From NCBI GenBank assembly GCA_964443005.1, contig CAYUBI010000001.1:2901-66900 (forward strand): a stretch of DNA of 64,000 bases. The letters are read 5' to 3'. The notes under the pieces were generated by a model. It saw only the letters and a program-made list of their open reading frames with translations. It was not told where the DNA came from and made no database searches. How positions within the stretch are numbered: position 1 is the stretch's first letter; each line of letters opens with the position of its first letter. Shown here piece after piece: positions 6,993 to 8,119 of this stretch. The translations under genes and the position numbers were made by a program. Source of the stretch: an uncultured Candidatus Marinamargulisbacteria bacterium (GTDB lineage: Bacteria > Margulisbacteria > Riflemargulisbacteria > GWF2-35-9 > CAYUBI01).

Positions 6993-7043
6993 ATGCCAAC
7001 AATCAGTATGTTTTTTGGAATAATAATCCGAATGTATTTATGA
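6993..7043 (+). pseudogene. Truncated DUF4160 N-terminal stub of 16 codons (MPTISMFFGIIIRMYL*) with full upstream leader; its stop overlaps the rsgA ATG (ATGA)
   Basis: About 97% nucleotide identity to 8452..8608. RBS AAGGAGG is present. It could function as a leader peptide. Confidence 0.5.
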
Positions 7044-8119
7044 CAGATTCTATTGATTTAGCAACTTACGGGTTTGATAACTATTTTACAAGGCAACTGT
7101 CAGATTCCTCTGAGATGAATGCCGCCAGAGTCGTTTCCCAGCATCATGATTTGTATCAGGTTTTAGGTCGATACGGTGCGATGCAGGCTCGGGTTGCAGG
7201 TCGGTTGATGCATGAGGCCAAAACCGTTGCCGATTATCCAGCGGTAGGAGATTGGGTCATAGTTGATCGTGAGAACGATGAACATGGAGACGGAATAATT
7301 AATCAGGTACTGACACGTCGATCAATATTGACTCGATTAGCTGCTGGTACTGGTAAGAAAAATCAAATTATCGCGGCAAATATTGATGTATTGTTCATAT
7401 GTATGTCTCTGAATCTGGACTATAATCTGCGGCGACTGGAACGATATTTGTCTATAGCTTGGGATAGCGGGGCAGAACCTGTTGTAATCCTTACAAAATC
7501 AGACCTTTGCGATTCCTTATCTAAAAGGCTTGTAGAAGTAGAAGCGGTAGCTCCTGGGGTGGGCATTATTGTCACATCAAGTGTCAATGAGGATGGTATT
7601 CAAGGACTAGTTCCCTACCTCACTCCACGCCGAACAATCGCATTTATTGGTTCGTCCGGTGTAGGAAAATCAACACTTATCAATCGACTGTTGGGCAGTG
7701 ATATATTACATACACTTGAAACTCGCAATGATGACAAAGGGCGACATGCCACCACTAATCGTCAGCTTATAATGCTGCCTGATAGTGTTATGGTAATTGA
7801 TACGCCAGGAATGCGTGAGATTCATTTGGATACTGCGGATCTTGGGCAGGTATTCACTGACATAGAGCAATTAGCTACTAGTTGCAAATTCCAAGATTGT
7901 ACCCATAATTCGGAACCTGGATGTATGGTGAAAAAGGCAATTAATATCGGGGAACTATCAATTAAACGACTTGAAAGTTATCTAAAGCTTCAGAAAGAAT
8001 TAGGCTATGAAGGACTTAGCTCTAGGCAACTTGAAGGAAAAAAGATTCGCAATATGTTTGGGAGCAAAGGCCAGATGAAACAGGCCATGAACGATGTGAA
8101 GAAGAAGCAACACTTTTAA
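7040..8119 (+). CDS. rsgA: Ribosome small-subunit-dependent GTPase A (circularly permuted GTPase)
   Basis: Order G4 TKSDL, then G1 GSSGVGKSTLINRL, then G3 DTPG. C-terminal zinc finger CKFQDCTHNSEPGC. N-terminal OB region. Confidence 0.75.
   Translation: MTDSIDLATYGFDNYFTRQLSDSSEMNAARVVSQHHDLYQVLGRYGAMQARVAGRLMHEAKTVADYPAVGDWVIVDRENDEHGDGIINQVLTRRSILTRLAAGTGKKNQIIAANIDVLFICMSLNLDYNLRRLERYLSIAWDSGAEPVVILTKSDLCDSLSKRLVEVEAVAPGVGIIVTSSVNEDGIQGLVPYLTPRRTIAFIGSSGVGKSTLINRLLGSDILHTLETRNDDKGRHATTNRQLIMLPDSVMVIDTPGMREIHLDTADLGQVFTDIEQLATSCKFQDCTHNSEPGCMVKKAINIGELSIKRLESYLKLQKELGYEGLSSRQLEGKKIRNMFGSKGQMKQAMNDVKKKQHF

Follow-up and report, generated by a model that had tools for sequence, protein, structure and literature searches.

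Truncated 5' end of a dhiTA-type toxin-antitoxin operon joined to an rsgA-family GTPase gene at its start codon in a Marinamargulisbacteria contig

The window analysed here (i.e., the whole stretch of 64,000 nucleotides) carries on its plus strand, at 7040–8119, an intact gene for a long-form, circularly permuted GTPase of the RsgA family, 359 amino acids in length, whose native start codon has no Shine-Dalgarno (SD) sequence. Like the 30S-assembly GTPases RsgA/YjeQ of E. coli and CpgA/YloQ of B. subtilis, the protein has the permuted G4-G1-G3 motif order (TKSD at residues 152–155, the P-loop GSSGVGKST at 204–212 and DTPG at 254–257), a C-terminal Cys/His zinc cluster (C282, C287, H289 and C295), and matches above cut-off to both the Pfam domain RsgA_GTPase (PF03193; 154.3 bits against 30) and TIGR00157 (154.7 against 100). 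Across an alignment of 10 sequences, K153, D155, G204–T212, D254–G257, C282, C287, H289 and C295 are all invariant. It differs from the E. coli and B. subtilis proteins in that it is a long form with a YGFDNYF N-terminus, falls well below the cut-offs of the RsgA equivalog models NF008931 (PRK12288; 162.9 against 360) and NF008932 (PRK12289; 111.2 against 483), and belongs to a clade found in non-ribosomal gene contexts; its function is putative. Because the closest homologues begin with MTD or MTE at the very same residue (MTEYIDLAVYGFD and MTDTINLTAYGL), the ATG at 7040 is, on the evidence of this alignment, the native rsgA start. An in-frame N-terminal extension of RsgA is ruled out, in that 7040 is the first start codon after the preceding stop in its frame.

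Overlapping this start is a short open reading frame on the same strand (the stub; 6993–7043), which comprises 16 codons and a TGA and whose peptide, read directly from the sequence, is MPTISMFFGIIIRMYL*. It corresponds to codons 1–16 of a dhiT/DUF4160 toxin gene and is closed within rsgA's own ATGAC: its 3' end reads TTA TGA, such that the stub's TGA (7041–7043) and the rsgA ATG (7040–7042) form a co-directional, 4-nt ATGA overlap. A preliminary description of this locus had reported the overlap, a strong ribosome-binding site for the stub and the lack of one for rsgA, and each of these observations holds. The stub ATG at 6993 follows the SD sequence AAGGAGG (6980–6986) after a spacer of 6 nt, and its anti-SD duplex energy (−12.9 kcal/mol) is the strongest among the 52 window genes scored, as against +0.1 kcal/mol for rsgA; the median over these 52 genes was −5.55, a value biased to strong sites since the script took the candidate start with the best SD in each open reading frame. 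The coordinates given earlier were also right, save that the end of the stub had been placed 3 nt too far, at 7046. About 6 of the 52 genes have no SD, and these lie mostly at overlapped or very tight junctions. ATGA junctions occur at four other gene pairs in the window (19582, 23677, 26504 and 37992), and that at 26504 is likewise without an SD (+0.1). The stub and rsgA are in different frames, which rules out a stub-RsgA fusion protein.

The stub is not a chance open reading frame, judging from its nucleotide sequence, since its DNA belongs to a 182-nt repeat that is 93% identical to positions 8428–8609. The repeat is part of a module of about 180 nt that is present in four copies (A to D, all on the plus strand and all alignable) within a rearranged region. 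Module A (5511–6843) contains a dhiT-like gene (5617–5886), a dhiA-like gene (5889–6122) and a class I methyltransferase gene (6139–6843); module B follows it immediately, and no terminator is predicted in between. The upstream part of module B (6859–6992) combines a purine-rich element, a −10-like box and the SD, and is presumed to be a dhiTA-type promoter/operator region set before rsgA. RRAGTW repeats in the purine-rich element (6881–6930) are spaced by 14 and 10 nt in all four copies, and a metagenome scan for the element returned no matches. Module C, together with a truncated dhiT (8428–8660; ATG at 8562, 32 amino acids), is the closest paralogue of module B, and module D (8882–9542) contains an intact dhiT-like gene (9015–9281; DUF4160, 87.4 bits) and dhiA-like gene (9291–9542; DUF2442, 62.9 bits). 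DNA identity between modules B and D is 74%, and the core shared by B and C (6883–7040) has only 5 differences in 158 nt (97% identity).

It is the B/C comparison that locates the junction: Homology stops exactly at the rsgA ATG (7040), and module C runs on as dhiT (...YLGRKDHNPPH), showing the presumed form of the stub before it was joined to rsgA. By comparison with a complete operon, 80% of the toxin and the entire antitoxin are missing from the stub copy. The preliminary description had noted that the peptide recurs at 8562 and had ascribed the stub to DUF4160, both correctly. The recurrence (MPAISMFFGIIIRMYLGRKDHNPPH..., truncated, 32 amino acids from the ATG) lies within the dhiT fragment of module C, and the same peptide heads the two full-length DUF4160 genes at 5617 and 9015. 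Because 16 amino acids are too short for an HMM, the DUF4160 assignment of the stub draws on its DNA identity to modules C and D and on the shared N-terminal motif; the module C fragment (33 amino acids) scores 17.7 against a cut-off of 23. The motif MPxISMFFGIIIRM is present at no fewer than 120 metagenomic loci, and among the matches listed about 95 open reading frames have the size of a full-length DUF4160 protein (85–89 amino acids), and the truncated ones listed all start with MPTISMFFGIIIRM. Going by these matches, the stub peptide is the widespread N-terminus of this DhiT subfamily.

The attribution of the stub to a cassette gene, on the other hand, did not survive: Its source is the 5' end of a toxin-antitoxin operon, no inverted repeats flank the units, and no integron integrase was found among the open reading frames scanned at positions 1–13,000. 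The relevant model is DhiTA of Dickeya dadantii, experimentally shown to be a toxin-first type II toxin-antitoxin system (PMC8198452). The two intact pairs in the window (5617–5886/5889–6122 and 9015–9281/9291–9542) have the same toxin-first order and the same Pfam domains, DUF4160 and DUF2442, above their cut-offs, and the stub matches the toxin N-terminus behind the same kind of upstream region. They differ in that the intact toxin copies fall below the NCBIfam DhiT cut-off (72.4 against 100); moreover, toxicity, neutralisation by the antitoxin and autorepression are known only for the Dickeya system (PMC8198452) and are putative for the window pairs.

Further full and partial copies, all on the plus strand, are found around rsgA. 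Just downstream of it, at 8323–8394, the 5' part of a tRNA-Arg(CCT) gene and its upstream flank persist in degenerate form; this fragment is 88–92% identical to two full tRNA copies over 63–73 nt and is called by neither ARAGORN nor Rfam. The higher scoring of the full-length copies (8712–8788) is called by ARAGORN and scores 65.9 bits in Rfam, and the other (10055–10131; 40.2 bits in Rfam) sits in a 167-nt repeat 96% identical to 8676–8842. That the stub might be linked to the neighbouring tRNA-Arg(CCT) was considered and rejected, the sole Arg codon of the stub being CGA and not AGG. Farther along, a 5'-truncated dhiA remnant (12841–13074) starts right at the stop codon of mgtA (12844); DUF2442 is matched with 45.7 bits on residues 104–175 of the open reading frame 12532–13074, and, from column 5 on, the remnant can be aligned with both intact DhiA proteins. 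It may be the distal part of the dhiTA operon whose interruption gave rise to the stub.

Given truncated neighbours of this kind (the dhiT at 8562, the tRNA fragment at 8323, the GyrI-like sequence at 9577 and the dhiA remnant at 12841), rsgA might itself have been severed from its promoter and be on its way to becoming a pseudogene, with little or no expression. However, its open reading frame is full length, every invariant residue has been kept, and the exact native ATG stands behind a strong ribosome-binding site, the very layout expected to preserve expression; we consider silencing of this sort very improbable. Still less credit can be given to the view that a metagenome assembler falsely joined two loci through the repeated module. 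The contig is MAG-like and contains a 158-nt repeat with 97% identity, but a false join is possible only inside sequence common to both loci; because the rsgA-specific sequence starts where the repeat ends, module sequence precedes rsgA in any case, and the 5 core positions at which B and C differ mark them as distinct copies. An artefact is thus exceedingly unlikely. At the junction itself, the sequence is TATTTATGAC in the window, GATTTATGAC in a Margulisbacteria homologue and TATTTAGG in module C, which would allow a microhomology of up to 5 nt (ATTTA), an argument that depends on a homologue of just 71% identity.

The comparison of upstream regions of related rsgA genes, which the preliminary description had named beforehand as capable of refuting its proposal, showed that the relatives have upstream regions of their own, with no such micro-ORF. 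None of the five closest rsgA relatives (68–73% identity) has the stub, and neither a stub nor a DUF4160 gene is found upstream of rsgA in loci L001, L002/L003, L052/L053 and L054/L055, in which the SD is weak or absent (duplex energies of −3.0, +0.9, −4.0 and −4.0 kcal/mol). These relatives have no synteny in common, and their gene contexts are varied and non-ribosomal. Near rsgA in L002 lies a P-type ATPase gene, which was rejected as a syntenic counterpart of the window's mgtA: At 30% identity, the two are not orthologous neighbours. Among the 120 metagenomic dhiT starts listed, about 19 head complete open reading frames shorter than 85 amino acids, and none of the 14 inspected (shorter than 60 amino acids) runs into the beginning of an unrelated gene. 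Since the stub is absent from the five relatives and no such fusion occurs among the metagenomic dhiT loci inspected, the stub-rsgA arrangement is, on comparative grounds, a lineage-specific recombination scar.

Nor is the description of the gene downstream of this scar as a housekeeping rsgA supported. Its GC content is the highest of the 31 window genes scored (z = 3.2; z = 2.4 for GC3), and beyond the five close matches its nearest relatives are long-form Firmicutes proteins, most of the named top matches coming from that group. A scan of a genome collection with RsgA yielded no close relative, the best match being a Syntrophomonas protein with 55% identity. ProS, encoded in the same window, matches many Margulisbacteria, unlike RsgA. 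In exact look-ups, no recorded protein matched the window's RsgA, ProS or DhiA. Taken with the missed equivalog cut-offs, the setting of rearranged toxin-antitoxin genes, tRNAs and pseudogenes, and the relatives' lack of common synteny, these features suggest that rsgA here is probably an acquired or accessory gene. No second rsgA is present within the 64-kb window.

Short open reading frames immediately 5' of a gene can be regulatory leader peptides, such as ermCL, mgtL and pheL, which act by attenuation or arrest. The stub shares their position, but no alternative RNA structures and no codons known for arrest or sensing were found in it, it is not conserved across relatives, and its peptide is an inherited toxin N-terminus. 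The fold of 6968–7110 was no better than those of shuffled sequences (z = +0.94); the consensus fold of the four modules reached only −2.3 kcal/mol with a single compensatory pair, which argues that the purine-rich element is not a structured RNA; and an Rfam scan of 4400–10400 (E <= 1) returned only the two tRNAs, with no known leader or riboswitch. The suggestion of an unusual, dedicated regulatory arrangement is not supported, in view of this lack of RNA structure and Rfam matches and of the closest relatives without such a micro-ORF. That a housekeeping rsgA is governed by a dedicated hydrophobic leader peptide, i.e., a device selected for ribosome biogenesis, would accommodate the ATGA overlap, the strong ribosome-binding site of the stub and the lack of an SD for rsgA; but none of the five closest relatives has the arrangement, no attenuator-like structure or Rfam family is associated with it, the peptide is simply the common N-terminus of the DhiT subfamily, and the gene, a compositional outlier of Firmicutes-like affinity, lies in a rearranged region and misses both RsgA equivalog cut-offs. 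We regard such a device as highly improbable.

How, then, might rsgA be expressed? In Dickeya, both DhiA and the DhiTA complex repress the dhiTA promoter, which is found within the 100 bp that precede the toxin start (PMC8198452). Module B contains a −10-like box, TATACT (6959–6964; compare TATAAT), whose position is kept in all four modules. Because a sigma-70 promoter scan made no call inside module B, and manual alignment found no good −35 at 16–18 nt from this box, promoter activity of the module is treated here as putative. Read-through would meet no predicted plus-strand terminator from 5300 to 7800.

The explanation that we favour, and that we hold to be rather more probable than all others together, is that of a recombination scar through which rsgA captured a dhiTA 5' end, with RsgA being made by termination-reinitiation. 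A DNA rearrangement would have joined the 5' end of a dhiTA-type (DUF4160/DUF2442) operon to the native rsgA ATG, bringing with it a promoter/operator-like region, a very strong SD and dhiT codons 1 to 16, with loss of the original rsgA upstream region. Since the dhiT frame meets rsgA's ATGAC at the junction, it is closed at once by TGA, which leaves a 16-codon open reading frame overlapping rsgA by 4 nt. Transcription of rsgA would probably start from the captured region, continue into it by read-through from the upstream dhiT, dhiA and methyltransferase genes, or do both. Ribosomes loading on the stub SD would then translate the 16 codons, terminate at the UGA and re-initiate on the overlapping AUG, and this is probably the main source of RsgA.

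That RsgA translation depends on the stub is plausible by analogy, because ATGA coupling is well documented (PMC6728339) and the window contains four other ATGA junctions. Of 14 overlapping gene pairs tested elsewhere, 13 were strictly coupled, with a variable contribution of the SD (PMC6728339). The stub and rsgA resemble such termination-reinitiation pairs (Huber et al. 2019, PMC6728339) in their co-directional 4-nt overlap, strong upstream SD and SD-less downstream gene, and differ in that a 16-codon relic stands in place of a functional upstream gene; their coupling is putative. They also recall the idea, described in a recent review, that a short upstream open reading frame delivers ribosomes to the next gene (PMC12548453): Ribosome loading is the only plausible role of so tiny an open reading frame, although the stub differs in being traceable to a truncated toxin gene and in not being conserved in relatives. 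The fold of 6968–7110 makes a model of coupling by RNA unfolding unnecessary. The stub is intact, yet over just about 3% divergence from module C, which is too little for selection on it to be demonstrable.

An AU-rich, unstructured region around the rsgA AUG leaves stub translation nothing to open and would also permit independent, SD-less initiation. RsgA could accordingly be produced by de novo initiation near 7040, with the scar being neutral and stub translation of little effect; the lack of stable structure at the start, the weak or absent SDs of the relatives and the SD-less genes elsewhere in the window are all consistent with this. We nonetheless judge it unlikely, if worth serious consideration, given that the SD-less window genes are mostly those at overlapped or very tight junctions, that the strongest SD of the window lies 47 nt upstream and feeds ribosomes straight to this AUG, and that nearly all overlapping pairs tested have proven to be coupled (PMC6728339).

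Under the favoured explanation of capture followed by termination-reinitiation, the join is a tidy but ordinary scar of one lineage and not a conserved regulatory device. The locus offers a clear example of how expression can be restored to a gene that has been displaced or acquired, by way of the promoter region, ribosome-binding site and a few codons of a neighbouring toxin-antitoxin operon, the borrowed codons becoming a short open reading frame that hands ribosomes to the next gene. It also carries two warnings for annotation: Tiny open reading frames that overlap gene starts may be rearrangement scars and not evolved leader peptides, and a gene called 'rsgA' on the strength of a generic model need not be the housekeeping copy.

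If the operator was kept, it is possible that the two intact DhiTA pairs nearby repress the captured region in trans. That an RsgA-family GTPase has in this way come under DhiTA autoregulation, being repressed by its neighbours and induced when the antitoxin is degraded, is in our estimation quite improbable. Should the captured region prove to be a target of DhiA, the locus would be a naturally occurring instance of toxin-antitoxin autoregulation extended to a gene that is not part of such a system, linking toxin activation to a ribosome-maturation or rescue factor; apart from that case, the understanding of rsgA regulation and of translational coupling is unchanged. More broadly, dhiTA 5' modules would on that reading be portable expression platforms for cargo such as the methyltransferase, RsgA and GyrI-like proteins, the last of which is represented in the window by fragments at 9577.

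Immediately upstream of rsgA (7040-8119, plus strand) stands a 16-codon ORF, here termed the stub, which is a real feature with a clear origin, i.e., a toxin-gene remnant left by rearrangement, and which by now very likely loads ribosomes for an accessory GTPase of the RsgA family. A Shine-Dalgarno (SD) sequence, AAGGAGG (6980-6986), is followed after a 6-nt spacer by the stub ATG at 6993, and the 16 sense codons (MPTISMFFGIIIRMYL) are closed by a TGA (7041-7043) that overlaps the start of the 359-codon rsgA ORF (ATG, 7040-7042) as ATGA. The preliminary description had credited the stub with a strong RBS and denied rsgA an SD of its own, and both points are borne out by anti-SD duplex energies: -12.9 kcal/mol for the stub, the strongest among the 52 window genes scored, and +0.1 kcal/mol for rsgA, i.e., no SD site (the median of the 52 genes is -5.55, a figure biased towards strong sites by the script's choice of starts). 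No other start codon lies between the preceding stop in the rsgA frame and ATG 7040, so a longer form of RsgA or a stub-RsgA fusion is excluded unless frameshifting occurs.

The stub lies in a module, about 180 nt long, of which the window has four copies, all on the plus strand. Module A (5511-5691) leads into an intact DUF4160 gene (5617-5886), a DUF2442 gene (5889-6122) and a methyltransferase gene (6139-6843); module B (6859-7040) into the stub and rsgA; module C (8428-8609) into a DUF4160 ORF truncated at 32 aa; and module D (8882-9089) into an intact DUF4160 gene (9015-9281) and a DUF2442 gene (9291-9542), with DUF4160 and DUF2442 scores exceeding the Pfam cut-offs. That copies A and D continue into intact DUF4160 genes upholds the proposed DUF4160 origin of the stub, whose peptide is found again at 8562, as had been reported, and also begins the full-length products of the genes at 5617 and 9015. 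In Dickeya dadantii, DhiT and DhiA (DUF4160 and DUF2442) are an experimentally shown type II toxin-antitoxin pair with the toxin gene first, and both DhiA and the DhiTA complex repress the dhiTA promoter, which is located no more than 100 bp upstream of the toxin start (PMC8198452). On the NCBIfam DhiT model, which has an equivalog cut-off of 100, the intact toxins of the window score up to 72.4 bits, and we therefore refer to the window pairs as DhiTA-like.

Every module comprises a purine-rich element, a -10-like box whose position is constant (TATAAT in A, C and D; TATACT in B), an SD and the first dhiT codons, and the four together yielded neither an Rfam family nor a conserved RNA structure. 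The purine-rich element (5511-5560, 6881-6930, 8450-8499 and 8888-8937; 50 nt, 72-76% purine) precedes each of the four dhiT starts in conserved form and holds three conserved RRAGTW hexamers, their spacing being 14 and 10 nt; an operator function is possible. It had no match in Rfam, no conserved fold emerged, and a metagenome scan for it returned nothing. Another possible reading of the element is a small ORF (METEVSRSNLAEVDGS and a stop codon in module A), with some synonymous and conservative changes among the copies. If DhiA still repressed the captured region, which we consider improbable, a ribosome GTPase would be tied to toxin-antitoxin autoregulation. Downstream of three of the four modules lies a gene in the same orientation that is unrelated to the toxin-antitoxin pair; the class I SAM-methyltransferase gene at 6139-6843 begins 16 nt past the stop codon of dhiA, lacks a visible SD (aatgaatggttttaaATG) and seems to be a cargo gene that is expressed as part of the module A dhiTA operon.

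Over 182 nt, modules B and C share 93% identity; eight of their 13 differences fall within the first 24 nt, the core (6883-7040) differing at only five positions. Their identity ends exactly at 7040, past which module C goes on as dhiT (TTA GGT AGA AAA GAT CAT AAT CCT CCA CAT) and module B as rsgA (TTA TGA CAG ...). The rsgA start is native, for its nearest homologues begin at the same aligned residue (MTEYIDLAVYGFD in a Margulisbacteria MAG, 71% identity, and MTDTINLTAYGL, 68%, aligned with MTDSIDLATYGFD in the window). In the Margulisbacteria homologue the start region is GATTTATGAC, which makes the stub-closing TGA a part of rsgA's own ATG-ACx. The junction was perhaps formed at a microhomology of up to 5 nt (ATTTA), a point no more than suggestive, given how distant the comparison gene is.

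A conserved arrangement is not what the relatives display: all five of the closest rsgA relatives have their own upstream regions, in which SDs are weak or missing (dG -3.0, +0.9, -4.0, -4.0), and neither a DUF4160 stub nor a comparable micro-ORF precedes rsgA in any of them. A metagenome scan with the N-terminal motif MPxISMFFGIIIRM returned at least 120 loci; among the 120 matches listed, about 95 ORFs have the full length of 85-89 aa and about 19 (~16%) are complete ORFs shorter than 85 aa, and, judged from these matches, decay that begins with the toxin appears common in this dhiT family. The 14 ORFs shorter than 60 aa, which were inspected individually, look like cases of in-place nonsense, frameshift or internal-deletion decay, and in no case has a stub of at most 20 codons become fused to the beginning of another gene. 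Because no such stub occurs in the five relatives or the inspected short ORFs, we regard the stub-rsgA fusion as a one-off and the stub peptide simply as the N-terminal sequence that members of this toxin subfamily conserve. At one metagenome locus (L155), an internal deletion fuses dhiT codon 26 to the dhiA RBS.

The supposition that this rsgA is a housekeeping gene is not supported. Its product is an intact RsgA-family GTPase, scoring above the cut-offs of PF03193 and TIGR00157 and retaining both the Cys/His cluster and the G4-G1-G3 motifs in permuted order, but it falls far below the two RsgA equivalog cut-offs (162.9 vs 360; 111.2 vs 483). The window ProS has many Margulisbacteria-named matches at 54-60% identity, the host being a deep Margulisbacteria-like MAG; RsgA has only five matches at 68-73%, of which one carries a Margulisbacteria name, and the next tier (55-59%) consists of hundreds of long-form proteins, those with names being mostly from Firmicutes (e.g., Thermoanaerobacterium, Dehalobacter, Acetobacterium, Sporomusa). 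The five close relatives sit in unrelated contexts (GH48 and GNAT; tRNA and P-type ATPase; DEAD helicase and ars operon; hydrolase and ars operon), and the prkC-rsgA-rpe context of canonical B. subtilis cpgA was absent around rsgA in all four Firmicutes loci examined. In GC content, rsgA (0.423) and mgtA (0.404) rank highest of the 31 genes scored (mean 0.348), rsgA with z = 3.2 for GC and 2.4 for GC3. Taken together, the equivalog shortfall, Firmicutes-leaning matches, variable contexts and GC deviation point to an accessory, probably transferred paralogue; no second rsgA occurs within the 64-kb window. In three contexts that are unrelated to one another, a transporter of cations or Mg2+ lies near long-form rsgA, i.e., an MgtA-like ATPase (window, 10247-12844), a P-type ATPase (locus L002, 5518-8193; only 30% identical to the MgtA-like ATPase) and CorA (locus L004, 8879-9820), a closeness that may be coincidence.

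Transcription of rsgA would proceed from the captured dhiTA-type 5' region, by read-through of the upstream dhiT-dhiA-methyltransferase genes, or both; no plus-strand terminator was predicted between 5300 and 7800. Because the promoter scan called none in module B and alignment by eye revealed no -35 at proper spacing, the captured promoter is putative rather than demonstrated. Ribosomes would then load at the very strong stub SD, translate its 16 codons, terminate at the UGA and re-initiate on the overlapping rsgA AUG. Coupling was strict in 13 of 14 overlapping gene pairs tested elsewhere, with a variable contribution of the SD (PMC6728339), and the idea of a short upstream ORF delivering ribosomes to the next gene has been reviewed (PMC12548453). 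Other ATGA junctions in the window lie at 19582, 23677, 26504 and 37992, that at 26504 likewise without an SD. Because the region around the stub-rsgA junction is AU-rich with no significant structure (z = +0.94), coupling would depend on re-initiation rather than on unfolding. This absence of structure would equally permit SD-less initiation at rsgA independently of the stub, which is the main rival. Under the favored reading, re-initiation from the stub, the pair is a further example of two known types, ATGA termination-reinitiation coupling and promoter/RBS capture, and the arrangement, thought unusual for rsgA, represents neither a new regulatory principle nor a conserved rsgA feature.

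The fusion lies in a hot spot of rearrangement. Three occurrences of tRNA-Arg(CCT) are interspersed among the dhiTA modules: a 5' fragment directly after rsgA (8323-8394), a good copy (8712-8788; 65.9 bits) and a weaker copy with acceptor-stem changes (10055-10131; 40.2 bits), the last within a 167-nt repeat 96% identical to 8676-8842. No integrase was seen among the ORFs scanned from 1 to 13,000. Between dhiA and tRNA-Arg lies a pseudogene fragment (9577-9681 and 9678-9764), whose 34-codon ORF at 9577-9681 matches the N-terminus (PDB 3b49/5x5m, E = 6e-5) of the 211-aa Lin2189, a GyrI-like protein. A DUF2442 (dhiA-like) remnant without its first ~4 codons (12841-13074) begins at the mgtA stop codon, and we tentatively suggest that the rsgA-to-mgtA block might have split a single dhiTA operon, leaving dhiT up to codon 16 on one side and dhiA from codon 5 on the other. 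Farther upstream, on the minus strand, a gene for a 218-aa SET-domain protein (3765-4421; PF00856, 57.9 bits), with a eukaryote-like lysine-methyltransferase domain, adjoins a GNAT acetyltransferase gene (4703-5326). The tmRNA gene (31471-31842; tag peptide ANNFKNAFAIAEVAQAA) is surrounded by genes for ProS, SecA and GlmS, which confirms the rest of the window as core chromosome.
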